A DNA stretch of 64,000 nt, from positions 46,825-110,824 of IMG/VR virus record IMGVR_UViG_3300020156_000003. One strand, 5' to 3'. The notes under the pieces are model-generated. The model was not told the DNA's origin. It ran no database searches and saw nothing but the letters and a program-made list of their open reading frames with translations. Origin of the DNA: a virus (Duplodnaviria; Heunggongvirae; Uroviricota; Caudoviricetes). Below, piece by piece: positions 1,911 to 61,713 of the stretch (its first letter is position 1; each line of letters begins with the position of its first letter). A program made the translations under genes and the position numbers.

Positions 1911-1926
1911 AAGTCACAAATGACTT
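1911..1926. promoter_or_regulatory. Operator palindrome
   Basis: AAGTCACAAATGACTT in the intergenic region before the lysis genes. Confidence 0.5.
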
Positions 1927-2022
1927 CCATGTCCGACATTTCTTTGCTAGAATGCCTGGCAAACCTTTGCGAGCGAATGACGAAGGCATCGACATGACAC
2001 TGACAAAATTGAAGGATTTGAA

Positions 2023-2343
2023 ATGCCGACAAACGTCTTCGAGCAGCAAATGGAAGAACTGAAGATCGACATGCGCGAAATGCGCGGGGCCATCACTAAG
2101 ATGGCCGAGGCTCTCACCAAGCTTTCAGTTCTGGAAGAACGCAACCTGGCGGCTAACGTGGCAATCGAGAAGATTGCCGAGCGCCTGGACAAGACCGACG
2201 AGAAGGTCAACCGGGTCGAGCTGGAGCAGGTCAAGTTTGAGGCAACCGTGGGCGGCATCTCCAAGACGATGAAGGCGATGTGGGCAGCCTTCGGCGGCGG
2301 CGTAATCTACCTCGGTAGCCAACTGATCAAGACGTTCGCATGA
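2023..2343 (+). CDS. Coiled-coil protein with a C-terminal transmembrane segment. A lysis-cassette member, holin-like or spanin-like.
   Basis: The hydrophobic C-terminus is GGISKTMKAMWAAFGGGVIYLG. Its stop overlaps the start of the endolysin gene in an ATGA junction. Confidence 0.4.
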   Translation: MPTNVFEQQMEELKIDMREMRGAITKMAEALTKLSVLEERNLAANVAIEKIAERLDKTDEKVNRVELEQVKFEATVGGISKTMKAMWAAFGGGVIYLGSQLIKTFA

Positions 2344-2750
2344 TCTCCCTCGCGCAGTTTTTCATGGGGCGCGACGTGACCTACAAGTCTGCGCTGACGC
2401 CCGCTGTCACAGCCAATGCAACCGACCTGTTGCAGCGTGTGAACTTTCTGCTGGAAGTCTTCTACGCTGCGAACCCGAAAGCGCACGCCCGCGGCGTGAA
2501 CTCGGGCTGGCGGCCGCCGGCGCTGAACGCGAGCGTCAAGGGCGCCGCGCCTCGCTCCAAGCACATGACGGGGCAGGCGATCGATGTCGGTGACGACGAC
2601 GGCGCACTGGACGCTTGGCTCATGACCCCGCTGGGTCAGAAGGCGCTGGTGGAAGCGAAGCTGTGGATGGAGCACCCGTCCGCAACGCCCCGCTGGTGTC
2701 ACCTGCAAAGTGTTCCGCCTGGCTCCGGTCGGCGTGTCTTTTACCCCTAA
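2340..2750 (+). CDS. Endolysin, peptidase M15 family (L-alanyl-D-glutamate peptidase or D-Ala-D-Ala carboxypeptidase-like).
   Basis: Contains the motif SGWRPPALNASVKGAAPRSKHMTGQAIDV. This fits the S-x-H-x-x-G-x-A-x-D zinc-binding signature of M15 phage endolysins. Confidence 0.75.
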   Translation: MISLAQFFMGRDVTYKSALTPAVTANATDLLQRVNFLLEVFYAANPKAHARGVNSGWRPPALNASVKGAAPRSKHMTGQAIDVGDDDGALDAWLMTPLGQKALVEAKLWMEHPSATPRWCHLQSVPPGSGRRVFYP

Positions 2751-2763
2751 GGATAAGTCACGA

Positions 2764-3174
2764 ATGAATAAGCTATCTGCAATCTGGAGTCTGTTTCGCA
2801 AGGGACAGGCGGTCGCCAATCCCGAAGCGTGGAAGGACGCCGGCAATGCCGCCTTTCTGGTCGGGGGCGTCATTCTCGCGCTGGTGCAGTTGGCCGCGTC
2901 GTTCGGCTACACGCTGCCGTTCGACATCACGACCGAGCAGGCTAACAACATTGGTCTTGGCATTGCTACTGTGGTCGGTTTCTTCGTCCACAACGTCAGC
3001 TCCGAACATGCCGGACTCCTGCCTGCCAGGCGAGACGCTGTGTCAGGCGATGCTGCGCCAGGTGCCGCGGCACCCGTGCAGTCTGTCGGCCAGACCCATC
3101 CTGGAATCGACGACGCCACCCGCGAGCGCGCCCGCAAGTTCCTCGAAGCCAACAAGGATCTCTACCTCGGTTAG
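2764..3174 (+). CDS. Membrane protein with two transmembrane segments, a holin or spanin candidate.
   Basis: Hydrophobic helices FLVGGVILALVQLAASFGY and IGLGIATVVGFFV. Lies immediately after the endolysin. Confidence 0.45.
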   Translation: MNKLSAIWSLFRKGQAVANPEAWKDAGNAAFLVGGVILALVQLAASFGYTLPFDITTEQANNIGLGIATVVGFFVHNVSSEHAGLLPARRDAVSGDAAPGAAAPVQSVGQTHPGIDDATRERARKFLEANKDLYLG

Positions 3175-3255
3175 CGCGTATGCACTCGATTATTTCCGCC
3201 GTCTTGACGGCATTTTTGTTGCGGTTCGCTGTACTTACTAAAGAAGGAGTCTCCT

Positions 3256-3522
3256 ATGAGCGTGGCAAATTTCATCCAGGTCGTGCAGGTTACTGCGCAA
3301 TTGCTGCCGGTGGTCATCGACGCCATCAAGGCAGTTGAGGCGGCAATCCCCGGCCAAGGCAAGGGTGAGCAGAAACTTGCGCTGGTGCGCGGGATGCTCG
3401 AAACGGCGTTCGTCACTGTGCAGGACGTGACGGTCAAGTTCGAGCAGGTGTGGCCGGTGATCTCGGCGACGATCTCGAATTTGGTCGCGATCTACAACAA
3501 GATCGGCGCGTTCAAGAAGTAA
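3256..3522 (+). CDS. Small membrane protein, a holin-like candidate.
   Basis: AAGGAG Shine-Dalgarno sequence upstream. Hydrophobic segments present. Followed by a rho-independent terminator. Confidence 0.4.
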   Translation: MSVANFIQVVQVTAQLLPVVIDAIKAVEAAIPGQGKGEQKLALVRGMLETAFVTVQDVTVKFEQVWPVISATISNLVAIYNKIGAFKK

Positions 3523-3540
3523 TTCGCCGCACAGGCGTGG

Positions 3541-3567
3541 AGGCCGCGATTGCGGCCTTTTTCTTCA
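3541..3567 (+). terminator. Rho-independent terminator at the end of the lysis module.
   Basis: Stem AGGCCGC-gatt-GCGGCCT followed by TTTTTCTTC. Confidence 0.7.
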
Positions 3568-3585
3568 ACTTAACATTTTCCTCTC

Positions 3586-4920
3586 ATGGCGAAAGAAGTC
3601 GATCTGAACCAGTTCATCAAGATTTGGAATGACCTGGAGAATTACCCGACTGTGGCCGATGTCGCTGAAGCCTGCGGCATTTCGATCAAGACGGCGCGCA
3701 ACAAGGCCGGCTTTTTGCGCGGCCTGTCCAAGAACGACCCGAATGGTGTGAAGGTTGCGCACCGCAATCCCACGTCGGAAGTACCGCTGTCGGAAGACGC
3801 GGGTCGCTTCATGGCCGATTGGGGGCCGGACGAGTGCGTTGCCGAGCTGCGCCGCATCGCCGAGAAGGATACGGAAATGGTGGTCACGCGGAACTACTTC
3901 CGCAACCACAGCGCGATCTCGGAATCGACCTGGAACCGCTACTTCGGCACCTTCGAGGAATTCAAGCGCCAGGCCGGCATCATGCTCTCGCGCCAGCAGC
4001 ACCAGCTTGAGAAGCAGATCGCCAAGCACGCCTCCGTCGACCATTACCGCAACCTGAACATCGACCGCGCCAACTACGAGACGAAATACGTGCGCGACAA
4101 GGAAGGCCGCTTCAAGACGATGCTGATCTGCTCCGATCTGCACGACATCGAAATCGACCCGTTCTTCCTGCGCGTGCTGATCGATACGGCCGCTCGCGTG
4201 CAGCCGGACATCATCGTCCTGAACGGCGACATTTTCGACTTGCCGGAGTTCGGCAAATACGGCGTCGATCCGCGCGAGTGGGACGTGGTCGGGCGCATCA
4301 AGTTTGCGCATGAGAAGATCCTCAAGCCGCTGCGCGAAACCTGCCCCAACGCCCAGATCGACTTCATCGAAGGCAACCATGAAGCCCGCTTGCTGCGGCA
4401 CCTGGCCGATCAGTCGCCGGCGCTGCGCGCGGTGCTGTCCGACCTGCACGGCTGGACGACCTCGAAAATCCTGGGCCTGGATGAGTTCGAGATCAACTAC
4501 ATCGCCAAGGCGGATCTGGCCGCTTTCACGAAGAAGGACTTCGAGAAGGAGCTGGCCGCCAACTACAAGATTTACTTCGACACCTTCGTATGCCACCACT
4601 TCCCGTATGCACGCGACTGGAAGATGCCTGGCGTGAACGGCCACCATCACCGGCATGTGGTGTGGCCCGCTTTCAACCCGGTCTACGGCGCGTTCGAGTG
4701 GCACCAGCTCGGCTGCGGCCACAAGCGCGCGGCGTCCTACTGCGAAGGGGAAAAGTGGCACATGGGCTTTGACATCGCCCACATCGACACGCATACGCGC
4801 GCCACCGTCCACGACTACGTGACCGTGACCGACTTTGCCGTCGCCGGCGGCAAGTTCTACTACCGCACGCCGGCCGAGGTCGATGCACACGTTGTCAAGC
4901 CGGTCATGCAGCCGGCATAA
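3586..4920 (+). CDS. Calcineurin-like metallophosphoesterase with an N-terminal HTH-like domain.
   Basis: MPP motifs D-x-H (SDLHD), GDxxD (NGDIFD) and GNHE (EGNHEARL). The N-terminal stretch TVADVAEACGISIKTARNKAGF is HTH-like. Confidence 0.75.
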   Translation: MAKEVDLNQFIKIWNDLENYPTVADVAEACGISIKTARNKAGFLRGLSKNDPNGVKVAHRNPTSEVPLSEDAGRFMADWGPDECVAELRRIAEKDTEMVVTRNYFRNHSAISESTWNRYFGTFEEFKRQAGIMLSRQQHQLEKQIAKHASVDHYRNLNIDRANYETKYVRDKEGRFKTMLICSDLHDIEIDPFFLRVLIDTAARVQPDIIVLNGDIFDLPEFGKYGVDPREWDVVGRIKFAHEKILKPLRETCPNAQIDFIEGNHEARLLRHLADQSPALRAVLSDLHGWTTSKILGLDEFEINYIAKADLAAFTKKDFEKELAANYKIYFDTFVCHHFPYARDWKMPGVNGHHHRHVVWPAFNPVYGAFEWHQLGCGHKRAASYCEGEKWHMGFDIAHIDTHTRATVHDYVTVTDFAVAGGKFYYRTPAEVDAHVVKPVMQPA

Positions 4921-4943: not shown

Positions 4944-4979
4944 GATCAGTCAGCGCTGAGTTATAGTGGTGACTCGATC
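4944..4979. promoter_or_regulatory. Split operator flanking a -10-like element, upstream of phoH.
   Basis: GATCAGTCA-gcgctgagTTATAGTg-GTGACTCGATC. Confidence 0.45.
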
Positions 4980-5933: not shown

Positions 5934-6647
5934 ATGATTGAACACACGCACGGCGCCTTCTTCGGCTCGGCACTCGATTTCCACCAGTGCGAGATCCTGG
6001 CGATCGCAAACATCGACCGGCGGCTCCTGGCGCACGAAACGGCCCTCTACGGCCAGAAATGGTTCGACTACCGACCACTCCACCCGACGCTGGCAACCTA
6101 CCTGTTCGCGCATCACTACAATCGCGCATACGGCGCCTTCATGGGGCAGTATTTTGACCACAAGAAGCGCTTTATGGCTGCCTTCAAGGGCAAGGATGTG
6201 ATGGCCGCGCGCGAGAGGAAATCATTCTGGAAGCTGCGTCAGAAGTGTGACGAACTCGGCGTCCGGTACGATTTTTTCTGCCGCGTCACGATGGAGTGGT
6301 GCGCAATCAACGGCTGGAAGCAGCCGCCCCGGCCGGCACACGCGGCGACCAATGCCGAGCTGCTGGTCTACGTGGCAAACCGCTGGGCGCAGGAATGCCG
6401 CGGGAGGATCCAGTGGGCGCACGACCCGCGCTACACGACGCGCAACTGGTGCGGCGCACCCGACCAGGCCGCATACGAGGCGCACGTCTTGGACGCGATC
6501 AAATCCAAACCGCTGCCGCAGTACGCGCTGCACACTGCTCTATATGTATTTGACGCCCTTCGCATCGAAGCGGCGATCGAAAAGCTGCCGGAGTCGGCAG
6601 TCGACCAGGCGGTCGATTTTGCAGCGAAAGAAGTAAGTAAGCAGTGA
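5934..6647 (+). CDS. Hypothetical protein
   Basis: Long ORF with an AGAGGAA RBS. No domain recognised. Confidence 0.5.
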   Translation: MIEHTHGAFFGSALDFHQCEILAIANIDRRLLAHETALYGQKWFDYRPLHPTLATYLFAHHYNRAYGAFMGQYFDHKKRFMAAFKGKDVMAARERKSFWKLRQKCDELGVRYDFFCRVTMEWCAINGWKQPPRPAHAATNAELLVYVANRWAQECRGRIQWAHDPRYTTRNWCGAPDQAAYEAHVLDAIKSKPLPQYALHTALYVFDALRIEAAIEKLPESAVDQAVDFAAKEVSKQ

Positions 6648-6655
6648 GCTATAAT
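6631..6655 (+). promoter_or_regulatory. Conserved phage promoter repeat, type A, copy 1.
   Basis: AAGTAAGTAAGCAGTGAGCTATAATGG with a TATAAT -10 at about 6650-6655. The repeat is near-identical to the copies at 45281, 20529 and 30674. Confidence 0.6.
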
Positions 6656-6713: not shown

Positions 6714-7184
6714 ATGACATTCCCCCACGGTGCCCGTATTGATGACCCGATTCGCCGCGAGCAGATCGAGGAAGCCCGCCGCATGGCTGAATCGGAAGGC
6801 ATTGCGCCGCGCCGCACCCTGAGCGTCAAGGCGGGCTACGAGAGCCGCATGGACAACCGCAACGCGCCGCCTGCGCGTAAGCCGGCCGGCAAGACCCAAT
6901 TGAAGGGCCACGAAGCCTTTCTAAAGGCGCTGGAGCTGTCCGGCGCCGATGTGGAAATCGAGAAAACCGACGGCACCATTTACCGCGGCAAGGTTAAGCA
7001 TGCGGACAAGTACACGATCACGATCAATGTCGCCGCCGCCGGCCACTACGAGGAGGATGGGCATGAATTCATGCCACATTACTGCGTGGCGCGTGACCGT
7101 GTCGTTTTCAAGCATGACATCAGCGAATTCTCGGCCCTCACGCCGCGCGTTGAGCGTACGGCTGAAGAAGGGGTGCCGGCATGA
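6714..7184 (+). CDS. Hypothetical protein
   Basis: ORF downstream of type A promoter copy 1, with an AGGAGAAA RBS. Confidence 0.5.
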   Translation: MTFPHGARIDDPIRREQIEEARRMAESEGIAPRRTLSVKAGYESRMDNRNAPPARKPAGKTQLKGHEAFLKALELSGADVEIEKTDGTIYRGKVKHADKYTITINVAAAGHYEEDGHEFMPHYCVARDRVVFKHDISEFSALTPRVERTAEEGVPA

Positions 7185-8638
7185 CCGACGCCACATTGCA
7201 GGCTGCCGAAGACTCGGTTGTCGCAATGATCGGCGACCGGATGACTGCCGGTCTGAGCGCGACCGCTTCGGCGCCTGAAATCACGACCGGCACGGACACC
7301 AAGTTCGAGTTCGACGCCGACTTCCAGACCAAGGTCGCCACCCTTGCAGTGCGCAGCATGGATTTCATGCGCAAGACCGCGCACCTGATGAAGCCGGACT
7401 ACTTCGAGAACGCCGGCGAGGCCGCAATGGTCAACCTGGCCCTGCGTTTCTACAAGCAGTACGGCACGGTGCCCACCGCGGCGGCCGCGGCTCAACTGTT
7501 CAAGGACGACATCAGCGCCAAGATCATCCGCAAGGACATGGTGCCGGTCGCGAAAGAGGCGTTCTACAAGGTATTCGACAAGCACGCCGACCTGTCCGAC
7601 AGCCAGTTCTTCGCTGAGAAGGTCGCGGAGTTCGCCCGCCACCAAGCACTCTCGGCGTCGATCCTGGAGTCGGTGGAGCTGCTGGAGAAGAAGCAGTTCG
7701 ACAAGATCAAGCAGATGGTCAAGGCCGCGTGCGAGGTCGGCCTGAACGAGCATGGCGAGGAGTACGACTACTACGCCAAGATCGACGAGCGTACCGCCGA
7801 GCGGGCCGACCGCATGGCCGGCAAGCTGCCGCCCACCGGCATCACGACCGGCCACAAAATGATCGATGAACTGCTGTATCACCGCGGCTGGGGCCGTAAG
7901 GAGCTTTCGGTGATCCTGGGCGGCGCAAAGGCGGGCAAGACGACCGCGTTGATCAACTTCGCCAAAGCGGCGTCGCTGGTCGGCCACAACGTCTTGTACG
8001 TGACCTGCGAAGTGGCGGCCAAGATCATCTCCGAACGTCTCGATGCCACGATGACGGACACCGAGATCAAGAACCTGATGGCAAAGATGAAGGACGTGCA
8101 GGGCAAGGTTAAAGCCCTCATGCCCCGCGCCGGCTGCCTGAAGATCGCGGAGTTCCCGTCCGGCACGCTGACCCCGACGCAGTTGCGCGCCTTGATTGAG
8201 CGCTATAAGTCGCCAGCGTTGATGCCTGACGGCAGCGTGCGCGACCCGATCCAGTTCGACCTGATCGTGGTGGACTACGCCGACATCATGGCGCCGGACT
8301 TTCGGACGAGCGACAACATCGAGAACTCCAAGCAGATTTACCTGGCCCTGCGCGCCATCGCCCACGACGAGAACGTGGCAATGTTGACAGCGACGCAGAC
8401 CAACCGCGAAGGCTTCAAATCGACGGTGGCGAAGGCCGAGCACGTCGCGGACGACTTCAACAAGGTGCGCACGGTGGACATCATGATTTCCATCAACATC
8501 ACCGACGAGGAGCGCGCCAACGGCGAGGCGCGTCTGTATTTCGCAGCGTCGCGTAACCAGCAAGGCGGCTTCACCATCTTCGTGAAACAGGAGTTGGAGA
8601 AGATGAAATTTATCGCAAGCATTTTGAGGATCGAATAA
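7181..8638 (+). CDS. DnaB-like (SF4) replicative DNA helicase
   Basis: Walker A GGAKAGKTT, Walker B DLIVVDYADIM and the H4 motif ATQTNREG. Confidence 0.85.
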   Translation: MTDATLQAAEDSVVAMIGDRMTAGLSATASAPEITTGTDTKFEFDADFQTKVATLAVRSMDFMRKTAHLMKPDYFENAGEAAMVNLALRFYKQYGTVPTAAAAAQLFKDDISAKIIRKDMVPVAKEAFYKVFDKHADLSDSQFFAEKVAEFARHQALSASILESVELLEKKQFDKIKQMVKAACEVGLNEHGEEYDYYAKIDERTAERADRMAGKLPPTGITTGHKMIDELLYHRGWGRKELSVILGGAKAGKTTALINFAKAASLVGHNVLYVTCEVAAKIISERLDATMTDTEIKNLMAKMKDVQGKVKALMPRAGCLKIAEFPSGTLTPTQLRALIERYKSPALMPDGSVRDPIQFDLIVVDYADIMAPDFRTSDNIENSKQIYLALRAIAHDENVAMLTATQTNREGFKSTVAKAEHVADDFNKVRTVDIMISINITDEERANGEARLYFAASRNQQGGFTIFVKQELEKMKFIASILRIE

Positions 8639-9930: not shown

Positions 9931-10712
9931 ACAAGAACAAAACAGTAGTGGTGTCGGTGGAATTGCTCGAATGGGCGCAGCAAAATATTGACTGCATCGA
10001 AGACGAAGCCGAGCGTCAAAAGGTGAGTGCAGAACTTGGCAAGTACATCGCCGCCGCACCAGCAGCGACAGCGCAGCCTGACGAGCGGGAGGATGCCGAA
10101 AGCATCATCAAGGACATTCGGGAACTCACCGACTTGGCAGACAAGATGGGGCGTTCGCGTGGGCAGAACAATTACTGCATGAACCGCACCGCACTGGACA
10201 AGTTCGTTGATCTAAAGATTGCACTTGAGGCTCGGATTCGCGCCGCCCTCACCGCCCCGCAGGATGCGCAGGAGCGGGATGTGATCAAGGAGCTTGCAGA
10301 TCGCTTTGCCGCTATCCCGCATGAAATGTGGCAAGCCATCGAGGTCGCAAACCTGCTTCGGGAGTACATCACCACCGCACAGCCATCGGACAAGCCGGAA
10401 GGCAAGGCCGAGCAGCAGGCGGAGCCGGTAGCATTCACGGCGCAAGACCGCCTTGATCGGCTCAAGCAGTATCCCTACCGTGCTGAAACGATGTGGTCGA
10501 AAGACCTCTGCGATGGTGGAGACATTCCGCTCTACACCCACCCACCCGCGCAGCAGCAACTGACGGACGAGGCGGCGGACAAGGCCCGAAACGCTCTGCT
10601 GTGGTTCTACCGCCGTGCAAAACCGAAGTATGGTCGACTGCCGTTTGCCGAAGAAGCGATAGCCTTGTTGACCAATCGGCCCACCGACAAGGATGCGGGA
10701 GATCGGTCGTGA
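9927..10712 (+). CDS. Hypothetical protein
   Basis: ORF with a coupled start. Confidence 0.5.
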   Translation: MNKNKTVVVSVELLEWAQQNIDCIEDEAERQKVSAELGKYIAAAPAATAQPDEREDAESIIKDIRELTDLADKMGRSRGQNNYCMNRTALDKFVDLKIALEARIRAALTAPQDAQERDVIKELADRFAAIPHEMWQAIEVANLLREYITTAQPSDKPEGKAEQQAEPVAFTAQDRLDRLKQYPYRAETMWSKDLCDGGDIPLYTHPPAQQQLTDEAADKARNALLWFYRRAKPKYGRLPFAEEAIALLTNRPTDKDAGDRS

Positions 10713-11806
10713 GAAAAGGCGGCAACGCTGAATTGCAGGAAGCGATCGAGTCCATCGACATCGAGTCGTGGCTCGATCGCGAGGGCGTTCGCTACAAGCA
10801 CACGCGCGGATCCTCCGGCGCCCAACTGAACGTCAAGGAATGCCCCTGCTGCGGCAATTCCAACTACAAGGTCTATCTGAACGCCGATACCGGACTTGGC
10901 AACTGCTTTCACGGCGACTGCGAAACCAAATTCAACAAGTGGAAGTTCATTTCCGCTTCGCTCGGCGTGCCGACCAGGCAGGTGATCGAGCATATCAAGG
11001 AGGTCGCGCGCGAGCAGGGCTGGCGCCCGCCGCGCAAGAAGGCACTGGCGGTCGATACGGCAAAGGCCGAGCTGGTACTGCCGGAGTCCATTGCCTTGCC
11101 GCATCAGGGCCGCAACCTGCGGTATCTGGACAGCCGTAACATTTCCGGCGACGTGGCGGCATATTTCGAGCTGCGCTTCTCCCACCGCGGCCACTTCGAT
11201 TACATCGACGAGGAGGGCCGGCCGCGCCGTCAGGACTACAGCAACCGGATCATCATCCCGATCTACGACCTGGAGGGCGAGCTGGTGTCCTTTCAGGGGC
11301 GCGACATCACTGGCGAGGCCGACAAGAAATACTTGTTCCCGCCTGGCTTTGCGTCCACTGGCGCACACCTTTACAACGGCTATAACGCCATCGGGGTCGA
11401 GTCGATTGTGATCAACGAAGGCGTCTTCGATGTTGCAGCAACCAAGGTCGCCCTCGACGGCGAAATGACGCTGCGCGACGTGGTGCCGGTCGGCTCTTTC
11501 GGCAAGCACCTGTCGCACGGATCGGATGACAGCCAGCTCGGCAAGCTGATGCACCTGAAGCGGCATGGCTTGAAGACGGTCACGTTCCTGTGGGACGGTG
11601 AGAAAAAGGCGATCCAGGATGCAGTCGCGGCCGCCCAACTGGTCAGGAGCGTCGGTTTGATGGCGCGCGTGGGCCTGCTGCCGCCCGACAAAGATCCGAA
11701 CGAGGCGACGGCAGAGCAGGTGCGCGCGGCTTACTGGAAGGCGACCGTGATCAACAACGTGACGGCCACCAAGCTGTTGATGATTGCAGAACGCGACTAC
11801 GCTTAG
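10709..11806 (+). CDS. DNA primase with a zinc finger and TOPRIM-like domain.
   Basis: GTG start overlaps the upstream stop. Zinc-binding stretch CPCCGNSNYKVYLNADTGLGNCFHGDC. TOPRIM-like IVINEGVFDVAA followed by LWDGEKKA. Lies next to the helicase. Confidence 0.65.
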   Translation: MRKGGNAELQEAIESIDIESWLDREGVRYKHTRGSSGAQLNVKECPCCGNSNYKVYLNADTGLGNCFHGDCETKFNKWKFISASLGVPTRQVIEHIKEVAREQGWRPPRKKALAVDTAKAELVLPESIALPHQGRNLRYLDSRNISGDVAAYFELRFSHRGHFDYIDEEGRPRRQDYSNRIIIPIYDLEGELVSFQGRDITGEADKKYLFPPGFASTGAHLYNGYNAIGVESIVINEGVFDVAATKVALDGEMTLRDVVPVGSFGKHLSHGSDDSQLGKLMHLKRHGLKTVTFLWDGEKKAIQDAVAAAQLVRSVGLMARVGLLPPDKDPNEATAEQVRAAYWKATVINNVTATKLLMIAERDYA

Positions 11807-11821: not shown

Positions 11822-11836
11822 AAGTCACAAGTGACT
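11822..11836. promoter_or_regulatory. Operator-like palindrome of the TAAGTCA/TGACTT family.
   Basis: AAGTCACAAGTGACT, followed about 21 nt later by TATTAT at about 11859-11864. Confidence 0.55.
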
Positions 11837-11909
11837 ACGAAATCCGCAGCGCGAGCGGTATTATCAGCTTATTGAAAGATTGCGCGAAAGCGTGCGCAGG
11901 GAGGCAACA

Positions 11910-13324: not shown

Positions 13325-14746
13325 ATGGAACTCATCATGAATAGCGATCAGGTATTGGATCTGATCGATAGCGTCGCAGCCACCAGCGGCAAGAACGACA
13401 AGATTTCGATGCTGAAGGCGGTGTCCGGCAGCAACCTGCTGCGCGCCGTGCTGGAGGCAACTTACAACCCGATCGTCAGCTATGGCATTCGCCAGTTCCC
13501 CGACCGTGCTGTCGACGCTACTGGCGATGCCCACTTTTCGGCGCCGACATGGGGCGTGATCGCGGCGCTGCGCGAACGCCAAGTTACCGGCAACGCCGCA
13601 CAAGCGGCGATTCAGCACGAAATGAACACGCTGTCCGTTAAGTCGGCCGAACTGTTCAAGCGCATCATCCTGAAGGACATGCGCGCTGGCTTCTCCGAAG
13701 AAACCGTCAACAAGGTGTGGGGCGGCCTGCTCCCGGAGTTCCCGTATCAGCGCTGCTGCCTGCCCAAAGACGCCAAGCTCGACACCTGGAATTGGGCCGA
13801 AGGCCACATCAGCCAGCAGAAGGCGGACGGCATGTTCGCCAACGTCAATCACGAAGAAGGCGGCCAGGTCTTCATCTTCAGCCGGCAAGGCTCGATGTTC
13901 CCGATGGAGAAATTCGAGGAGCTGGCAACCGTGGTCAAGTTGTCGCTGGCGGCCGGCACGCAGAATCACGGCGAACTCCTGGTCATGCGCGATGGAGCGA
14001 TCCTGGCGCGCGAGATCGGCAACGGCGTGCTGAATAGCGTGCTGAAGGGCGGCGACTTCGCCGAGAACGAGCGTCCGATCTTCATGGTGTGGGATCAAAT
14101 TCCGCTCGATGCCGTGAAGCCGAAAGGCAAGTATGCGGTGCCATATGTGCAGCGCCTCAAGGGGCTGATCGAGCAGTTGCGTGGTGGCGCCAACATCAAC
14201 GTCGTCCAGTTGATCCCGACCAAGATCGTCAAGAGCCTGACCGAAGCGTATCAACACGCGGCAGAGGTCATGCTGGCCGGCGGCGAAGGCACCATCCTGA
14301 AGAACCGCAACGCGCACTGGAAGGACGGCACCAGCAAGGAGCAAGTCAAACTCAAGCTGGAGTTCACGGTCGATCTGGAAGTGCAGGGCGTTGTCCTCGG
14401 TCGCGACAACACCAAGAACGCCGGCCGCGCCGGCAGCCTGAAGTGCGCGACGTCCGACGGCAAGCTCGAAGTCGATGTGGCGATCAAGGGCGAGAAGATG
14501 CGCGACGCAGTCGATGCCAATCCGGACGACTGGATCGGTCGCATCATGCCGGTGACTGCGAACCTTGTGCTGAAACCGTCGGAGAGCAACGAATTGCATT
14601 CCCTGTTCTTGCCTCGTTTCGCTGAAAGCGAATACCGCACCGACAAGACCGTGGCGGACTCGTTGCAGCGCGTGTTCGACCAGGAGGAGGCGGCCAAATT
14701 GGGCGTCGCCATCAAGGACGGCACTGCACTGAAGGCGGCAGCATGA
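13325..14746 (+). CDS. ATP-dependent DNA ligase
   Basis: Motif I QQKADGMF (KxDG), motif IV NHGELLVM and motif V EGTILKN. Confidence 0.8.
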   Translation: MELIMNSDQVLDLIDSVAATSGKNDKISMLKAVSGSNLLRAVLEATYNPIVSYGIRQFPDRAVDATGDAHFSAPTWGVIAALRERQVTGNAAQAAIQHEMNTLSVKSAELFKRIILKDMRAGFSEETVNKVWGGLLPEFPYQRCCLPKDAKLDTWNWAEGHISQQKADGMFANVNHEEGGQVFIFSRQGSMFPMEKFEELATVVKLSLAAGTQNHGELLVMRDGAILAREIGNGVLNSVLKGGDFAENERPIFMVWDQIPLDAVKPKGKYAVPYVQRLKGLIEQLRGGANINVVQLIPTKIVKSLTEAYQHAAEVMLAGGEGTILKNRNAHWKDGTSKEQVKLKLEFTVDLEVQGVVLGRDNTKNAGRAGSLKCATSDGKLEVDVAIKGEKMRDAVDANPDDWIGRIMPVTANLVLKPSESNELHSLFLPRFAESEYRTDKTVADSLQRVFDQEEAAKLGVAIKDGTALKAAA

Positions 14747-17957: not shown

Positions 17958-18024
17958 TATAATGTGCGTGTTGGACGTTGACGCGAGTCGGCGACCTTGT
18001 TCGGCAGCATTGCGGGGAATCAAA

Positions 18025-19191
18025 ATGGCAACAAAAAGACAAACGCCAGGCGGCAAGTGGGAATACATCATCAAGCGCTCCAAGCTCCTGGAGAAGCCGA
18101 TCTACCTGACCTTCGATGACGAGGCCGAGGGTGACGCCTACGTCGCCAAGCTCGAAGCGCTCCTAGACCGCGGCGTGGTGCCGCACGAATACCAAAAGCA
18201 AGGCGAGAAGTACGTGCTGCTGGCCGAGCTGATTGCGGACTACTTGGTGCAGGTGCATGTGTCCGATCCGGACAGGAAAATTCTCAACGTGATCTATGCC
18301 CGCATCGGCAAGACCAGTCTGCGGCTCGTCAATTACGCTTGGGTGGAAGGCTGGATCGGCGACATGAAGACGCAGTTGAATTTGAAGCCAGGTACGATTC
18401 GTCACCACGTCGGCGCGCTCGGGCGCTGCTTCGATTGGGCAAGCCGGCGCAACGTCGTGCCGCTGGTGATCAACCCGATCAGGCAACTGCCAAAGAGCTA
18501 CGCGCAGTACAGCGAGCGCGACGCGCAACTGGCGCGCGCCGTCGACGACGACCATGTGCGCCAGGAGGACGAGGAACGTGACAGGCGTCTCGAAGAAGGG
18601 GAGGAGCAGCGGATCCGGCAGATCCTCGACGGCCACAAGCCTGAAGGCCGGCAGCGGGCAATGGCGCTGCGCTATCAGGGCGCCATCGAGCTGCTGTTCG
18701 ACCTGGCGCTGGAGACGGCGATGCGAATGCGGGAAATGTTCACGCTGACCCTGGATCAAGTCGACCTGGCGCGAAAGACGGTCTTTCTCGACAAGACCAA
18801 GAATGGCGACAAGCGGCAGGTGCCGCTGTCGTCGGTGGCGCTGTCGCGCATTCAGCGCTACATGGAGCAGGTGAGGGCCGCAGAGCGCGGCATGGAGGGG
18901 TTCAGCTTCGAGGGCAAGCAGCTCTTTCCTTGGTGGGATGGCTCGCTTGAGCGGGACGAATTGCGGCGCATTACGGCGCTGTTATCGCGCCAGTACGCGC
19001 GTGTTTTTGAGGCGGCCGGCTGTCACGATCTGCGCTTTCACGACTTGCGCCACGAAGCCACCAGTCGCTTCTTCGAGCGCACGCAGTTGCAGGACTTCGA
19101 GATCATGAAGATCACCGGCCACAGTTCCACACGGATGCTGCGGCGCTATTCCAACCTACGCGGCAGCGTGCTGGCCGACAAGCTCTGGTAG
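18025..19191 (+). CDS. int: Tyrosine recombinase (integrase)
   Basis: C-terminal catalytic motifs LRFHDLRHEATSRFFE...ITGHSSTRMLRRYSNL. Lies adjacent to the attP core. Confidence 0.9.
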   Translation: MATKRQTPGGKWEYIIKRSKLLEKPIYLTFDDEAEGDAYVAKLEALLDRGVVPHEYQKQGEKYVLLAELIADYLVQVHVSDPDRKILNVIYARIGKTSLRLVNYAWVEGWIGDMKTQLNLKPGTIRHHVGALGRCFDWASRRNVVPLVINPIRQLPKSYAQYSERDAQLARAVDDDHVRQEDEERDRRLEEGEEQRIRQILDGHKPEGRQRAMALRYQGAIELLFDLALETAMRMREMFTLTLDQVDLARKTVFLDKTKNGDKRQVPLSSVALSRIQRYMEQVRAAERGMEGFSFEGKQLFPWWDGSLERDELRRITALLSRQYARVFEAAGCHDLRFHDLRHEATSRFFERTQLQDFEIMKITGHSSTRMLRRYSNLRGSVLADKLW

Positions 19192-19491
19192 CTCGTAGGC
19201 GGACAAATCGGCGCGCGGGGTCTTTTCCCTGCCGCGCTTCTTGGGCGATACCATAGACGGCACGCGCGCCGCCGTTTGCTGCAATTCTTCCTCCACGCCC
19301 GCTTTCGCCAGGCGCTCGCGCATCTGGCGCCTGGCTTCCGCGCGCAGGTATTCCGTCAAGTCATCCAGCAGAAATACCCAGGCGCGGCCAATGCGCGCAC
19401 CCGGCAATGCGCCGGAGGCGGCCAGCTTCAAAGCGGTCGATTTATCGACCTTCAAGAATTCGGCGCATTCGTCGATGTCCAGCGTTTTCAT
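19156..19491 (-). CDS. xis: Excisionase or AlpA-family HTH protein.
   Basis: LKVDKSTALKLAASGALPGARIGRAWVF matches the excisionase/AlpA HTH family. GGGAG RBS. Convergent 36 bp overlap with int. Confidence 0.7.
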   Translation of the reverse strand: MKTLDIDECAEFLKVDKSTALKLAASGALPGARIGRAWVFLLDDLTEYLRAEARRQMRERLAKAGVEEELQQTAARVPSMVSPKKRGREKTPRADLSAYELPELVGQHAAA

Positions 19492-19554
19492 GTGACTCCC
19501 TGTTCCAGTGACGGAGTGGATCTTATACGTGGTTGGCGCTGAAAGCAAGTCAGC

Positions 19555-19569
19555 AATGACTGATCCGCA
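19555..19569. promoter_or_regulatory. Operator-like palindrome upstream of xis.
   Basis: AAGTCAGCAATGACT. Confidence 0.5.
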
Positions 19570-19854: not shown

Positions 19855-20313
19855 TCAAAAGTTCTCGGGCTTCAGGGTGTCAATCACGGCCAAGAGCGCG
19901 GCACGCTCGGTATCGTTGCGCAACCGCGGATTGGGCACCTTCGACTGACGGATGCACTCGATGATCTCCACTTCATTTTGCGTCAGCGTGAGCGACGGCG
20001 TAAAGATGATGTCTTGAAGCGCTTCCCAAGTGTCCGGCTCGTATTCTTGCATGACCAGGCGGTACAGGTGCTTCGGATCGACGCCGAGAGCGCGCGCCAT
20101 CGGCCCAACCTTCGACATCGGCAGTTTGGTCTTGCCCTGCTTGATCATCGTGATGATGTTGGGCTTGTTAAAGCCTGCTTCGCGAGCAATCTCCAATTGA
20201 GATTTGCCGCTAAGATCGATTTGCTGGCTGATGTAGTCAGCCACAGTGATGTTGTTGCTGCGTGATTTTCTCGACTTCACGCTCCGTTCTTCGGTAGTGG
20301 ATTCCATAAGCAT
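19855..20313 (-). CDS. XRE-family HTH repressor, CI-like.
   Basis: HTH QLEIAREAGFNKPNIITMIKQGKTKLP. It is divergent from the early operon and lies next to int/xis. GGGAG RBS. Confidence 0.8.
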   Translation of the reverse strand: MLMESTTEERSVKSRKSRSNNITVADYISQQIDLSGKSQLEIAREAGFNKPNIITMIKQGKTKLPMSKVGPMARALGVDPKHLYRLVMQEYEPDTWEALQDIIFTPSLTLTQNEVEIIECIRQSKVPNPRLRNDTERAALLAVIDTLKPENF

Positions 20314-20331: not shown

Positions 20332-20401
20332 GACTTACAGCAAGTCAAAAGTGAATTATTCGTTACGTTGTGATTATAGTCACTTAAAAGTTTTTCGTGA
20401 C
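20332..20401. promoter_or_regulatory. Immunity-region operator cluster carrying the repressor promoter on the minus strand.
   Basis: GACTTAcagcAAGTCAaaaGTGAAT, followed by TATAGTCAC-N13-GTGACTTAT. On the minus strand this reads TAAGTCAC-N13-GTGACTATAAT, the same architecture as the type A promoters. Confidence 0.55.
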
Positions 20402-42593: not shown

Positions 42594-42607
42594 TTTTCAA
42601 CCCTTAT

Positions 42608-45280: not shown

Positions 45281-45305
45281 AAGTAAGTAAGCGGTGAGCT
45301 ATAAT
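45281..45305 (+). promoter_or_regulatory. Type A promoter repeat, copy 4.
   Basis: AAGTAAGTAAGCGGTGAGCTATAATCATTTTGTCAGCGGG. This matches copy 1 at 38 of 40 positions. Confidence 0.6.
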
Positions 45306-47606: not shown

Positions 47607-47639
47607 AAGTCACTGGTGATGCAATCTCGCATCACCAGC
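47607..47639 (+). promoter_or_regulatory. A TAAGTCAC half-site plus a 10 bp hairpin.
   Basis: CTGGTGATGC-aatctc-GCATCACCAG, with no U-tract after the stem. Confidence 0.4.
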
Positions 47640-48940: not shown

Positions 48941-48976
48941 GTCAGGCTAAGTCATCACTGACTTGTAAGTCCTGAC
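48941..48976. promoter_or_regulatory. Nested palindromes
   Basis: GTCAGG-cta-AAGTCATCACTGACTT-gtaagt-CCTGAC. Followed by TAATAT and then GTGACTTAT. Confidence 0.55.
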
Positions 48977-49038
48977 GAACATCAGTAATATGTGACTTAT
49001 CGACATGCGCACGGTTGCGCACATTTAGGGAGAGCCAA

Positions 49039-49819: not shown

Positions 49820-50235
49820 GCGCAGAGCCGAACTTCCCGACGCTGCGCGAGGAACTGGATCGTAAGGCGTTTCAGACTCTCGACTGGCTGTTCACTTCGC
49901 TGGACAACGGGAAGTTGACGGCGGCGCAGTTCTCGACGGGCCTGGATGCGCTGTTCATGGCGACTTCGGGCCTGGTCGACGACGAGATCGCCACGCTGGT
50001 CACCGGCGCTGCCAGCATGGCAAAGCAGGGCGTGTTCAAGCGCGTATTTGTGCGCGGCGCGAATGTGATCGTGCTGACCCGCGTGGCTAGCGCTTCATCC
50101 TTTCTGATCATCGGCTACCACGGCGGCGAGCAGAGGACTGAGCGCATCGAGGAGTGCGATTCGTCGAAAGAGGCGGCGCAACTGTTTGAGCGGCGCGTTC
50201 AGCAGTTGTTGGACAAGGGATTTTCGGAGCTATGA
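49816..50235 (+). CDS. Hypothetical protein
   Basis: ATGA coupling with the upstream gene. Confidence 0.45.
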   Translation: MSAEPNFPTLREELDRKAFQTLDWLFTSLDNGKLTAAQFSTGLDALFMATSGLVDDEIATLVTGAASMAKQGVFKRVFVRGANVIVLTRVASASSFLIIGYHGGEQRTERIEECDSSKEAAQLFERRVQQLLDKGFSEL

Positions 50236-50657
50236 AGGCAAGCACATCACTGGCGGCCTACCACTCGATCAGCATGACAGAGCTGGAGGAGCGCGTGCTG
50301 GAGGTTATCGAGGCGTCCGGTATGGACGGCTGCATCTCGGACGAAGTCCAGGCGTGCTATCCGAAGCTGTCCTATTCGTCGGTGACGGCGCGGTTTTCGT
50401 CGCTGGAGAAGAAGGGGCTGATCTACCGCAATGGCGACACCCGACCGGGCGTGTCGGGGCGCCAGCAGCAGGTCATGCGCCTTGGTAAGTACAAGGGCAT
50501 GGTGCCGGTCGTGAGGCCGCCCAAGCCTGTCAAGGTCAAGCGGTCGGGCTTCCTCAACGGGCTGATGTACGCGGCCAGGCTCATGCTGGCGGCGCCCGAC
50601 CTGGAGGAAGCCAAGCGGCAGATGAAGAAGGAAATTTTGAAAGCAGCTAAACGATAG
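50232..50657 (+). CDS. Winged-helix DNA-binding protein candidate
   Basis: ELEERVLEVIEASGMDGCISDEVQ...FSSLEKKGLIYRNGDTRPG resembles the MarR/ArsR winged-helix fold. Confidence 0.45.
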   Translation: MKASTSLAAYHSISMTELEERVLEVIEASGMDGCISDEVQACYPKLSYSSVTARFSSLEKKGLIYRNGDTRPGVSGRQQQVMRLGKYKGMVPVVRPPKPVKVKRSGFLNGLMYAARLMLAAPDLEEAKRQMKKEILKAAKR

Positions 50658-51789: not shown

Positions 51790-51817
51790 TATAATTCAGT
51801 AAGTCAACAGTGACTTA
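51790..51817. promoter_or_regulatory. TATAAT plus operator palindrome plus Shine-Dalgarno sequence.
   Basis: TATAATTCAGTAAGTCAACAGTGACTTAACAAAGGGAG-N8-ATG. The 27 nt block is near-identical to the one at 20927. Confidence 0.6.
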
Positions 51818-52848: not shown

Positions 52849-52860
52849 AGTCTTGACCAC

Positions 52861-52888
52861 ATGCATCAGTCATCGTTGACTGATGCAT
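52861..52888. promoter_or_regulatory. Perfect 28 bp palindrome with an operator core.
   Basis: ATGCATCAGTCA-tcgt-TGACTGATGCAT. Confidence 0.6.
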
Positions 52889-53799: not shown

Positions 53800-53824
53800 A
53801 CCCGCCTGCGCTGAGTCTTTACCA

Positions 53825-53854
53825 TGTGCATAAGTCGTCACTGACTTATGCACA
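53825..53854. promoter_or_regulatory. Near-perfect 30 bp palindrome with an operator core.
   Basis: TGTGCATAAGTCG-tcac-TGACTTATGCACA. Confidence 0.6.
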
Positions 53855-60400: not shown

Positions 60401-60416
60401 AATCACAACTGACTTA
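60401..60416. promoter_or_regulatory. Degenerate operator site fused to a Shine-Dalgarno sequence.
   Basis: AATCACAACTGACTTAGGAG-N6-ATG. Confidence 0.45.
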
Positions 60417-60426
60417 GGAGCACGAC

Positions 60427-60777
60427 ATGCAGGACAAATTGCGCGCGATTCCGGATGATGCCTTGATTGAACTGAAGCAGCGGGTGGACGAGGAGTTCAA
60501 GCGTCGCCGCCCGAACTTACTGCGGGTGGGCAGGCAAGCCACCTTCGAGAGCAGCAAGACAGGCGAGACGGTGCGTATTCTGATCACCGGCAAGGGGCCG
60601 AAGAACTACCTCGGCACGCGCTGCGACGAGTACGGCAACCCGATCGGTGGCAGGGGCGCTCAATGGCGCGTCCACCCTGATTTTCTGACGCCGGTACTCC
60701 CGAAGAAGGCGCCGCCGCCCAAGCAGCTCGGCGTCGGTAATGACCGTCCCGCCGCAGCGCCAGTTGCGTCCTGGTAG
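60427..60777 (+). CDS. Hypothetical protein
   Basis: ORF. Confidence 0.45.
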   Translation: MQDKLRAIPDDALIELKQRVDEEFKRRRPNLLRVGRQATFESSKTGETVRILITGKGPKNYLGTRCDEYGNPIGGRGAQWRVHPDFLTPVLPKKAPPPKQLGVGNDRPAAAPVASW

Positions 60778-60819
60778 TCATAGATGAAGCATAAGGCGCG
60801 ATAAGCGCCTTTCTATGAC
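60777..60819 (+). terminator. Compound hairpin terminator
   Basis: Outer stem GTCATAGA...TCTATGAC encloses the inner hairpin AAGGCGC-gataa-GCGCCTT. Confidence 0.55.
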
Positions 60820-60925
60820 GCATTGATATAGCCTAGGAGGAATAAGCGCCCGATATAACGTCCAGGTTATACCGTCGCACTCGACCAAACGGGCGCAGAT
60901 AGGACGCGGGAATCCGACCGCTAAA

Positions 60926-60957
60926 ACGCGCTACGGGCAACCGGATTGCCCGCGCTG
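60926..60957 (-). terminator. Terminator of the minus-strand moron.
   Basis: On the minus strand, GCGCGGGCAA-tccgg-TTGCCCG(ta)GCGC followed by TTTTAG. Confidence 0.5.
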
Positions 60958-61004
60958 ATACCGAACCATACGCGGGCAATTCCAACGCTCAAAACGCGAG
61001 CATT

Positions 61005-61583
61005 TTATGCATCAGGAACGAAATACTGCTGGAGGACATTGCGCAGTCGCGCCTCCACCTTCGGATCAGCTTTGCATTTCGCTGTCAGATCAGGCGCGAA
61101 CGCCTTAATCCCATTGAGGAAGGCCATTAGTGTGTCCTCGATGTGTGCGGCAACGTGCGTGGCGCTCTGCGCCTGCACGAAAGCTAGAAGCTGCTGCGCG
61201 CCGGGGCCAGACTTGTCGCCGGAGTAATAGACGATTTGCTTGGCGTTACCTTGACCTGACAGTCGCGATTGTGCCGTGAAGGTGTGCAGGACACCGCACC
61301 TGGCGCCCCACATATCTGTCTCGGAAAACGTCAGCGAAGGATCCTGCGGCAGCAAGTATTTCTTCACCCAGGATTTGAACGTCACGTTGTCCGCCTCGAC
61401 CTTCGTCGGCGGCGCGTCGAGCAAGCCCAAGGCATCGATGGTGGAGTAGATGATGATCATCAACTGTCCGTACAGATGATTGGACAGCATCAGGTTCGTC
61501 GCCTCGATCGTGTTGATGGCATAGCCGTTGATCAAGTCCTCCACGGACTGAGCGGCGGGAGCGGTGTTTTGATTCGTTGTCAT
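61005..61583 (-). CDS. Orphan minus-strand gene (a moron) of unknown function.
   Basis: The only sizeable minus-strand CDS in a 40 kb + strand block. It has its own TTGCGC-16-TACAAT promoter, a UUCG hairpin in its 5'UTR, an AGGAAC RBS and a terminator. Confidence 0.55.
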   Translation of the reverse strand: MTTNQNTAPAAQSVEDLINGYAINTIEATNLMLSNHLYGQLMIIIYSTIDALGLLDAPPTKVEADNVTFKSWVKKYLLPQDPSLTFSETDMWGARCGVLHTFTAQSRLSGQGNAKQIVYYSGDKSGPGAQQLLAFVQAQSATHVAAHIEDTLMAFLNGIKAFAPDLTAKCKADPKVEARLRNVLQQYFVPDA

Positions 61584-61609
61584 GTAGTTATGTTCCTATG
61601 TTGGTTGGA

Positions 61610-61625
61610 CGCGTCCGAAGACGCG
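61610..61625 (-). promoter_or_regulatory. UUCG-tetraloop hairpin in the 5'UTR of the moron.
   Basis: Minus-strand RNA CGCGUC-UUCG-GACGCG. Confidence 0.45.
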
Positions 61626-61697
61626 ATGGATGAAATTGTAGCCGCCTGACGGGGCTGCGCAATTTATTTTTGGAAACGTTTCTCGCGCAAACAGGAT

Positions 61698-61713
61698 AAG
61701 TCATCGGTGACTT
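61698..61713. promoter_or_regulatory. Operator palindrome
   Basis: AAGTCATCGGTGACTT, followed by TGACTATCC and then CTGACTGATAAT. Confidence 0.55.

Follow-up and report, generated by a model that had tools for sequence, protein, structure and literature searches.

A palindrome, AGTCA-N4-TGACT, is dispersed between the genes of the 64,000-nucleotide (nt) stretch of DNA analysed here (positions 46,825 to 110,824 of IMG/VR record IMGVR_UViG_3300020156_000003; hereafter the window), which constitutes the early and replication half of the 110,838-bp genome of an SSU5-related phage or phage-plasmid. The window carries roughly 25-30 copies, 13 of them exact and about 15 weaker. Judging from its sequence, positions and conservation, the palindrome is probably the operator of the phage's own dimeric helix-turn-helix (HTH) regulator, built into many of the phage's promoters, and the most probable binder is a 434-like, XRE-type protein encoded at 19855-20313 on the minus strand.

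A dispersed palindrome between genes

Searching the window for AGTCA-N(2-6)-TGACT yielded 13 exact copies against an expectation of 0.11, every one of them with a 4-nt spacer, and the longer form AAGTCA-N(3,4)-TGACTT gave five exact copies where 0.01 were expected. AGTCA-N4 was also the sole outlier in an unbiased count of all 5-Nx-5 palindromes. Allowing up to two mismatches produced 47 matches (17.7 expected), and a scan with a symmetric position weight matrix (PWM), which extended the consensus to (A)T(A/C)-AGTCA-N4-TGACT-(T/G)A(T), returned 34 hits compared with approximately three in shuffled sequence. The dispersed network proposed in a first-pass annotation of this DNA is thus real and well above background, but its spacer, which had been given as three or four nucleotides, is 4 nt.

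All 13 exact copies, as well as seven of the nine copies with one mismatch, lie outside called genes, non-coding DNA making up 14% of the window (P ~1e-11 for the exact copies). These calls came from a crude gene caller, which mistook the leader region of the gene for a single-stranded DNA-binding protein (SSB) for minus-strand open reading frames (ORFs). The extended halves TAAGTCA and TGACTTA were likewise mostly intergenic (9 of 11 and 7 of 7, respectively). Sites occupy 21 of the 42 gaps of at least 40 nt, so that the earlier statement that nearly every intergenic gap carries a copy was too strong. Three further exact copies are found up to 8 kb outside the window, one of them between tail genes. 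A one-mismatch match at 23907-23920 (AGTCACTGGTGATT) falls inside the CobS gene; it recurs in locus L133 and is probably conserved as coding sequence, not as an operator.

Seventeen of the 19 positions listed originally were verified, some after a shift of a few bases. The remaining two belong to other hairpins: that at 33660 (33664-33695), directly before a Shine-Dalgarno sequence, is the GC-rich hairpin CAGTCGGGGgcgtTCCCCGACTG (ATCAGTCGGGGgcgtTCCCCGACTGAT), which has the wrong spacing, and that at 47607 (47607-47637) is one arm of the hairpin CTGGTGATG...CATCACCAG (CACTGGTGATGcaatctcgCATCACCAG). Across the window and 44 relatives, 153 pairs of AGTC and GACT have a separation of 6 nt, where the background is about 10 per spacing; this fixed distance excludes variable-length hairpins built on a common base, the type seen at 33660, which is therefore unrelated. 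To the original list we add four degenerate, promoter-embedded copies (6636, 20533, 30678, and 45286) and further copies at 2756, 35348, and 20833.

Position of the sites within promoters

We compared the 132 exact sites of 45 non-redundant loci with respect to their register, that is, the distance from the site to a -10-like hexamer. In 39 of them a TAnnnT hexamer begins at the last T of the site, giving AGTCAnnnnTGAC-TATAAT or AGTCAnnnnTGAC-TATACT; lesser peaks fall at +4, +8, +10, +22, and -21, and the register of any one orthologous promoter is retained among relatives. The first-pass annotation had described a fixed layout in which TATAAT is followed by the site and then by the Shine-Dalgarno sequence. 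This is not the rule, as the dominant order is site and then TATAAT, and in its main example, at 35803, the TATAAT in front of the site includes the stop codon of the preceding gene and is missing from relatives.

Sites that abut or overlap the -10 (register -1 or 0), the commonest class in the family, serve the promoter of the SSB leader and several others, all on the plus strand. The canonical example, AGTCAGTCGTGAC-TATAAT at 41771-41805, is followed by a second site (41792, two mismatches) 21 bp downstream and then by a Shine-Dalgarno sequence. The one-mismatch copy AGTCAGCGCTGAGT at 4948-4967 abuts a -10 TATAGT (4962-4967), and degenerate copies precede TATAAT at 6632-6655 (AGTAAGTAAGCAGTGAGC), 20529-20552 (AGTAAGTAATAAGTGAGC), and 45282-45305 (AGTAAGTAAGCGGTGAGC). 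That at 20529 points away from the XRE gene and precedes the ORF at 20611-20814. The promoter-embedded copy GATAAGTCAGCGGTGAGG-TATAAT (30674-30697), upstream of the SSB-like gene, has as its orthologue the canonical AGTCAnnnnTGAC-TATAAT in relatives; in the L035 clade the orthologue is GTAAGCGCTTAC-TATAAT.

Two promoters place the site farther upstream. At the ribonucleotide reductase promoter (42605-42635, plus strand; register +4), the exact site 42612-42625 is preceded by TATAGT and followed 4 nt on by TATAAT, an arrangement kept in relatives. The inverted -10-like hexamers around it (TTATAGT ... CTATAAT, 42598-42640) form a larger imperfect palindrome, also conserved in relatives, that may be a bidirectional or double promoter. 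At 35348-35375 (plus strand; register +8), the one-mismatch site ACTCACTCCTGACT and TATAAT are 8 nt apart, placing the left half of the site at the -35 position, and approximately 18 relatives keep this register. Several promoters (20885-20920, 23072-23094, and 48964-48991) share a (T)CCTG(AC) element, placed 11 nt before TAnnAT. At 35348 and its orthologues this element coincides with the N4 and right half of the site (AGTCAnTCC-TGACT, in the +8 register), and at the CobT promoter only the (T)CCTG(AC) half remains, beside the TTGCGT -35.

In a further class (register +22), the last T of the site is also the first base of the -35 hexamer, as at 23053 (TTGCGT-N17-TATCAT) and 61699 (TTGACT-N17-GATAAT); in some relatives this type of promoter has a register of 19 or 23, for which there is no copy in the window. 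The first base of the -35 is overlapped at six exact sites. At 1912-1925 the -35 TTCCAT is followed after 17 nt by the -10 TAGAAT (1948-1953), and the site is centred at about -41.5. The sites at 11823-11836 and 29541-29554 lie 22 nt upstream of a TATTAT (11859-11864) and a TAGTAT (29577-29582), respectively, the latter register being found also in L007, L016, and L019. The site at 23053-23066, upstream of CobS, overlaps by 1 nt the -35 TTGCGT (23066-23071) that precedes the -10 TATCAT (23089-23094). The last two belong to pairs: the exact site 48950-48963 is followed by a one-mismatch copy (48984-48997; the pair spans 48950-48997) that overlaps a putative -10 TAATAT, and the exact site over the -35 TTGACT at 61699-61740 (plus strand) is followed by a two-mismatch copy (61721-61734) that abuts the -10 GATAAT (61735-61740). 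The latter pair is located in a divergent region, beside a minus-strand gene (61005-61583).

Other sites lie just downstream of the -10, as does that at 41792. The exact site 20927-20940 lies between a TTGCGT-N17-TACAAT promoter and the Shine-Dalgarno sequence of CobT. Dozens of relatives keep this position, the site following a conserved TTGCnn-N17-TAnnAT promoter at a distance of 9-10 nt and coming just ahead of the Shine-Dalgarno sequence. The exact site 51802-51815 lies 6 nt downstream of TATAAT (51790-51795), again just before a Shine-Dalgarno sequence, and is identical to that at 20927 over about 22 nt (the core and the downstream leader AGTCAACAGTGACTTAACAA). Two stand-alone copies are followed within a few bases by a Shine-Dalgarno sequence: the exact site 35803-35816, which lies between a stop codon and the Shine-Dalgarno sequence of sbcD and is kept in relatives with no -10 nearby, and the one-mismatch copy 60401-60414, which is fused to its Shine-Dalgarno sequence (TGACTTAGGAG). 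The one-mismatch copy AGTCACGAATGAAT (2756-2769) overlaps the start codon of the ORF at 2764-3174, and the exact site 19548-19561 is upstream of a minus-strand HTH_17 gene (19156-19491).

Three copies had been described as extended to longer perfect palindromes. Two are extended, the exact copy at 52861-52888 (28 bp, perfect) and the copy at 53825-53854 (30 bp), whose core, at 53833, has one mismatch; the third, given as 41769, is instead the pair of sites 21 bp apart around TATAAT. The regions 52850-52888 and 53815-53854 share the longer arms TGCAT(C/A)AGTC...GACT(G/T)ATGCA, and GTCTT(G/T)ACC precedes both and occurs nowhere else in the window.

Conservation in related phage-plasmids

Of 61 sbcD-anchored loci, 48 contain the exact motif, down to approximately 41-52% SbcD identity, as does Rhizobium phage RHEph10. 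A 107-kb plasmid of Acinetobacter baumannii (NZ_CP027608) carries 23 exact copies genome-wide, among them five identical 22-mers, which precede replication, terminase, portal, capsid, tail, and holin genes. Orthologous site positions are kept down to about 40% protein identity, in hosts of three proteobacterial classes (alpha-, beta-, and gamma-). This operator wiring is common to a broad phage-plasmid family and is apparently undescribed: in the literature searched we found no description of the motif, of the SSU5 inverted repeats, of operators in Acinetobacter phage-plasmids, or of regulation in SSU5-related phage-plasmids.

SSU5 itself (L062 and L063; NC_018843) is without AGTCA-N4-TGACT and has three other dispersed intergenic palindromes: (i) TAAGTAnnTACTTA / aaaaaTAAGTAnnnnACTTActta, in 8 copies, (ii) GGTAAGnnCTTACC, in 5, and (iii) GATAAT-N12-AAACAAnTTGTTT followed by a Shine-Dalgarno sequence, in 14 copies clustered at 87-95 kb. 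The motif-less L157 has clustered, iteron-like GTCGC-N6-GCGAC repeats and CTAGCTAGCTAG arrays beside its XRE gene (3300-4150 and 6000-6500). We rejected these as a dispersed operator, as they are clustered in the manner of iterons or centromeres, and they are probably plasmid replication or partition sites.

The XRE protein as candidate repressor

The XRE gene sits between those for the integrase and CobT and runs opposite to the prevailing direction of transcription. The same placement and divergence are found in phage-plasmids of A. baumannii (WP_001107553; 41% identity), Klebsiella, and Escherichia coli; the RHEph10 homologue, likewise upstream of CobT, shares its strand with the other genes. 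XRE homologues were found in 763 PLSDB plasmids. That of E. coli LF82, CYRAN_45, is annotated as a putative repressor and is among the few Cyrano genes expressed in the lysogen, at 10-fold above local background (PMC9928086).

Pfam matches of the XRE protein to HTH_19 and HTH_3 were weak (E 4e-4 to 9e-4, below the curated cut-offs), and the Pfam search gave no match to Peptidase_S24. Its AlphaFold model (pLDDT 86.8) has an all-helical C-terminal half and an N-terminal domain that superposes on 434 Cro/repressor and P22 c2 at 1.4-1.9 Å over 61-64 residues; a Foldseek search with the model returned 434 Cro (2cro) at a root-mean-square deviation of 1.6 Å over 63 residues and P22 c2 at 1.4-1.7 Å. 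The 434 Cro and repressor and P22 c2 are dimers that read dyads of 14-18 bp.

This protein co-varies with the palindrome. Co-occurrence was scored in 80 CobS-anchored loci plus five reference genomes, and the recognition helix was compared among 51 distinct XRE sequences, with residues numbered as in the window protein, whose residue 56 lies in that helix. Methionine at this position, in a helix of the pattern ...PN(I/V)(I/L)(T/S)-M-(I/F)K..., characterizes 42 distinct sequences, of which 40 come from loci with at least one exact site and the remaining two from loci with four to five one-mismatch sites. By comparison, none of the nine sequences (five lineages) with Phe, Ile, or Leu at residue 56 is from a locus with any exact site (Fisher P = 1.8e-8, uncorrected for phylogeny). 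The association is not one of overall distance, because the XRE proteins of the motif-less L155 and L157 (Leu) are 45-47% identical to that of the window, nearer than the Met types of motif-bearing A. baumannii (41%), RHEph10 (38%), and L114 and L117 (36-37%).

Further, a clade with Phe at this position (L035 and L139) carries a different palindrome, TTA-GTAAGCGCTTAC-TAA (GTAAG-N2-CTTAC), at orthologous promoters and in the same layout. In L035, the sites at 14726 and 14751 correspond to those at 41771 and 41792 of the window, with the same succession of site, TATAAT, site, and Shine-Dalgarno sequence downstream of the orthologue of the gene at 41128-41748; similarly, position 4074 corresponds to 30678, with a site and TATAAT between the orthologues of 29622-30641 and of the SSB gene. 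The promoter skeleton is thus kept and the palindrome exchanged, as a co-evolving pair of operator and repressor would predict. This swap argues for recognition of the palindrome by a dedicated protein that evolves together with it, as opposed to RNA polymerase or sigma.

The start region of the XRE gene has a minus-strand TGAC-TATAAT (ATTATAGTCA on the plus strand), the putative XRE promoter, with an imperfect pair of sites around it (20343-20402): 20343-20356 (one mismatch) in the leader and 20389-20402 (two mismatches) upstream, 46 bp apart. The gene is divergent from the plus-strand promoter at 20529-20552 and the 67-codon ORF that this precedes; another copy lies at 20833. The first-pass annotation had noted half-sites at the repressor gene and suggested autoregulation; the imperfect sites are compatible with this idea, acting perhaps as weaker operators.

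Of the regulators proposed at that stage, the comparative data favour the XRE protein. No homologue of the winged-helix protein (50232-50657) was found in the motif-bearing A. baumannii plasmid, searched over its whole genome, or in the 40-kb stretch of RHEph10 that was examined, so that this protein cannot be the conserved binder. The AlpA/Xis-like HTH_17 protein looks like a target, with the site at 19548 upstream of its gene. We also considered the sigma factor and the phrog_3616 protein encoded directly after it, both of which co-occurred with the motif in all of the first five genomes; among the 80 CobS-anchored loci, both are present in three motif-less lineages, and neither predicts the motif.

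Proposed mode of action

From the enrichment, positions, and conservation of the sites, together with their co-variation with the XRE helix, we infer binding, repression, and a roadblock function. A dimer of the XRE protein would bind the dyad and, in registers -1, 0, +4, and +8, would cover the spacer, the -10, or the -35; in registers +19 to +23 it would cover or abut the -35, and at the downstream sites it would cover the start of transcription. By established promoter geometry, a regulator so placed would shut these promoters by occlusion. The stand-alone copies before Shine-Dalgarno sequences might act as roadblocks to read-through from upstream promoters, which is the stoperator-like part of the scheme. 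The outcome would be that replication and lytic genes are kept quiet in the carrier state, or that their expression is timed, and the imperfect copies at the XRE promoter would provide autoregulation. Being palindromic, the site could serve minus-strand genes as well, as at 19548 (the Xis/AlpA-like gene) and in the divergent region at 61699.

Alternative explanations

Several observations weigh against a repressor operator read by the XRE protein. The Met56 association could in part reflect shared ancestry, as there are only about five independent non-Met lineages. SSU5 carries the GGTAAGnnCTTACC palindromes yet has no detectable XRE homologue, which suggests that another regulator family can fill the role in the wider group. 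The Klebsiella XRE protein has a very similar helix (NPNILSL), and 40 kb of its locus shows no evident dispersed palindrome. The DNA examined covers the source genome except for approximately 31 kb. The other objections concern the promoters: 48 canonical site-plus-TATAAT promoters have no information at -35 and may need an activator or a phage sigma factor; P1 late promoters, which are subject to activation and not to repression, likewise combine a palindrome in the spacer with a -10; and six sites in the window are centred at -41.5, a classic position for activation. The lambda and 434 repressors activate PRM from about -42 (OR2).

The palindrome might accordingly be a positive promoter element, an alternative that we consider unlikely but far from negligible. 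An activator resembling P1 Lpa, or the phage sigma factor (24370-25116) together with its partner (25116-25790), would read it at the -35-less promoters, or the XRE protein would activate at the six -41.5 sites. Besides the perfect -10 of the canonical promoters and the sigma-70-family protein encoded in the window, this is favoured by the exact 22-nt distance from these six sites to TAnnAT, with several poor -35 hexamers between, and by the P1 late promoters (Lpa/SspA-dependent), which combine a -10, no -35, and, 4 nt upstream, a 9-bp palindrome (AAGTGACTT or AAATGACTA) containing the TGACT/AAGTCA core. The P1 box differs in that it is 9 bp long and centred at about -21 or -22, compared with 14-18 bp and about -18.5 here, and the present sites, in many registers, precede replication, nucleotide-metabolism, and (in A. 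baumannii) late genes, so that they are not limited to one temporal class. No Lpa homologue was found by tblastn against the window, the loci of relatives, and SSU5, nor did any of the window proteins scanned fall in phrog_1704, the group of Lpa. The many registers (-21, -1, 0, +4, +8, +10, and +19 to +23) and the promoter-less copies suit occlusion better than a fixed activation geometry, and a dimer spanning -25 to -12 would, as is established, cover DNA needed by sigma regions 2 and 3. Nor does the distribution of the sigma and phrog_3616 genes fit, as both are present in three motif-less lineages and absent from SSU5, which has promoter-abutting palindromes. A purely class II activator was rejected for the +22 sites: the 22-nt spacing is that of a -35 starting at the last T of the site, and relatives show 19, 22, or 23 nt.

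A combined code is conceivable but doubtful. Throughout the host-spanning SSU5-related clade, a single 434-like protein would repress where its sites overlap the -10 or -35 and activate at the six -41.5 sites, while the -35-less promoters would need the sigma/phrog_3616 pair or an Lpa-like factor; shared specificity could then give cross-immunity or incompatibility among very divergent phage-plasmids, from which clades would escape by a joint swap of operator and helix.

The copies could alternatively act as RNA stem-loops between genes, as processing signals, as stabilizers of 5' or 3' ends, or as targets of a translational repressor beside the Shine-Dalgarno sequence. Many lie 0-4 nt before a Shine-Dalgarno sequence (35803, 60401, 20927, and 51802), a gene whose A. 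baumannii counterpart is annotated as Hfq is present (6714-7184), and the two extended palindromes, with 12-bp stems, have predicted hairpin energies of -20.8 (52861-52888) and -17.5 kcal/mol (53825-53854). These two are the only copies that would form strong hairpins; the typical copy among the 16 sites folded has a stem of 5-7 bp and a predicted energy of -3.4 to -6.6 kcal/mol. Deviations in one half-site (TGAAT, TGAGT, AGTAA, and the TGACA of many orthologous sbcD sites) are not compensated in the other, and in the commonest layout the site is upstream of the -10 and hence not transcribed from that promoter. Minus-strand genes are served too (19548), an Rfam search gave no match, and no tRNA was found. 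The fixed spacing, the uncompensated mismatches, and the weakness of the hairpins indicate that the palindrome is most likely a DNA operator, as the first-pass annotation had held, and make an RNA element very improbable.

Finally, the shared flanks (about 22 nt at 20927 and 51802, and the five identical 22-mers of the A. baumannii plasmid) suggest cassette duplication, but an origin as a neutral or selfish repeat, such as a miniature mobile element or recombination hot spot, or by chance from base composition, can hardly be entertained given an enrichment of about 100-fold over shuffles, only about 18 bp in common with no terminal repeats or target duplications, orthologous positions that persist to about 40% protein identity in three proteobacterial classes, and a precise register relative to the -10.

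Comparison with known operator networks

The proposed XRE operator network resembles, in several respects, the CI and Cro systems of 434, P22, and lambda. The candidate shares their HTH fold, its proposed operator is a dyad of 14-18 bp overlapping the -10 or -35, the repressor gene is divergent from an early promoter and has weaker sites at its own promoter, and some sites lie at about -42. It differs in that (i) approximately 25-30 sites are dispersed over at least 64 kb, compared with three tandem operators at each of two control regions, (ii) the XRE protein has a helical C-terminal half and lacks the S24 peptidase domain responsible for RecA-stimulated self-cleavage, and (iii) very divergent phages retain one operator sequence, where those systems have a different one for each immunity type.

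Phage P1, like the present relatives, is a plasmid prophage, and its C1 protein is a single master repressor of scattered operons with promoter-overlapping operators (more than 15 are annotated in the P1 record). Its operators, in contrast, are asymmetric, monovalent 17-mers bound by a C1 monomer that is unrelated to XRE, and their sequences are unrelated to the palindrome. In phiC31, an inverted repeat of about 17 bp (CIR), first seen at the repressor gene and bound by the c repressor, is present in highly conserved intergenic copies genome-wide; repressor family, host, and promoter type all differ from those described here, and the repeat is not known to be related in sequence to the palindrome.

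The L5 stoperators had been offered as the model for the network. In L5 and other Cluster A phages, whose immunity repressor is of the gp71 type, stoperators number in the dozens and are concentrated in the short gaps between genes of uni-directional operons, some at promoters and others where they could block elongation (PMC9283540); each is an asymmetric site of about 13 bp, orientation-dependent and read by a monomeric, two-domain repressor. The window sites are similar in being dispersed and intergenic, with some at promoters and some away from them, and dissimilar in being a perfect 5-N4-5 dyad with symmetric flanks, which allows no orientation dependence, and in having as candidate a 434-like, presumed dimer. 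The likeness to L5 therefore holds for the dispersed intergenic network and not for family membership. Functionally the palindromes form a dispersed operator network like those of P1 C1, the L5 stoperators, and the phiC31 CIRs, but, with a dyad site and a 434-like candidate that has no cleavage domain, the system is a member of none of these families.

Gene content of the window

The window has a G+C content of 60%, and nearly all of its genes, which are arranged in blocks driven by many small promoters, are on the plus strand; tail genes lie directly upstream of it. Gene identities were assigned from PHROG and Pfam matches. The genes encode a DnaB helicase (7181-8638), a primase (10601-11806), an ATP-dependent ligase (13325-14746), a tyrosine integrase (17962-19191), the minus-strand HTH_17 (Xis/AlpA-like) and XRE-type proteins, the latter the proposed palindrome-binding repressor, a small protein of 67 amino acids (aa) in the cro position (20611-20814), CobT-like (20953-23031) and CobS-like (23162-24364) proteins, a sigma-70-family protein (24370-25116; Sigma70_r2 at 25.0 bits against a 24-bit cut-off, phrog_351 at 4.6e-14), a conserved phrog_3616 protein of 224 aa with no assigned function (25116-25790), and a DnaE-type polymerase (26017-29535), with a 5'-3' exonuclease, RecA/UvsX, SbcD, SbcC, and ribonucleotide reductase encoded downstream of the polymerase.

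A megablast search for close GenBank relatives gave a single match of 158 bp. The DnaE-type polymerase is 36-45% identical to those of Rhizobium phages (the RHEph10 group), Stenotrophomonas and Pseudomonas (nickie) phages, and SSU5-like phage-plasmids of Klebsiella and E. coli. The relatives are contigs of approximately 105-113 kb, among them a Massilia contig and non-mobilizable A. baumannii plasmids. Most relatives, RHEph10 and the A. baumannii plasmids among them, have the sigma/phrog_3616 pair, which is absent from SSU5 and Klebsiella pJN2-26. The product of 6714-7184 (156 aa) is 31% identical to the 'RNA chaperone Hfq' of an A. baumannii phage-plasmid (L066, 818-1357), and both genes are upstream of DnaB; a homologue was not detected in SSU5 or in the 40-kb stretches of RHEph10 and Klebsiella pJN2-26.

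A conserved 5' leader (30698-30800) precedes the SSB/gp32-like ORF at 30782-31645. In it, a GC hairpin whose length varies lies between the boxes GCTGAAACGA and AAGTCTAAAAGGCA, and after about 25 nt there follow ACGAAAGAAC and then ATG; an alignment showed the arrangement to be common to 15 relatives, and it has no Rfam match. From this comparison, the leader may be a translational operator, for which T4 gene 32 is a precedent.

Significance for SSU5-related phage-plasmids

Klebsiella, E. coli, Salmonella, Acinetobacter, and soil bacteria commonly carry phage-plasmids related to SSU5, and the way in which such elements silence about 110 kb of phage genes is essentially unstudied. The present analysis gives an operator sequence, the positions of the promoters that it would regulate, a specific protein as candidate repressor, and a natural swap of specificity (Met56 with AGTCA-N4-TGACT as opposed to Phe with GTAAG-N2-CTTAC), and so makes the control of lysis and lysogeny in this group directly testable, the clinically relevant A. 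baumannii plasmids being an accessible system. It is unusual for one operator specificity to be so deeply conserved across phages of three proteobacterial classes, and for operator and recognition helix to be exchanged so cleanly. The results predict which elements should be mutually immune.

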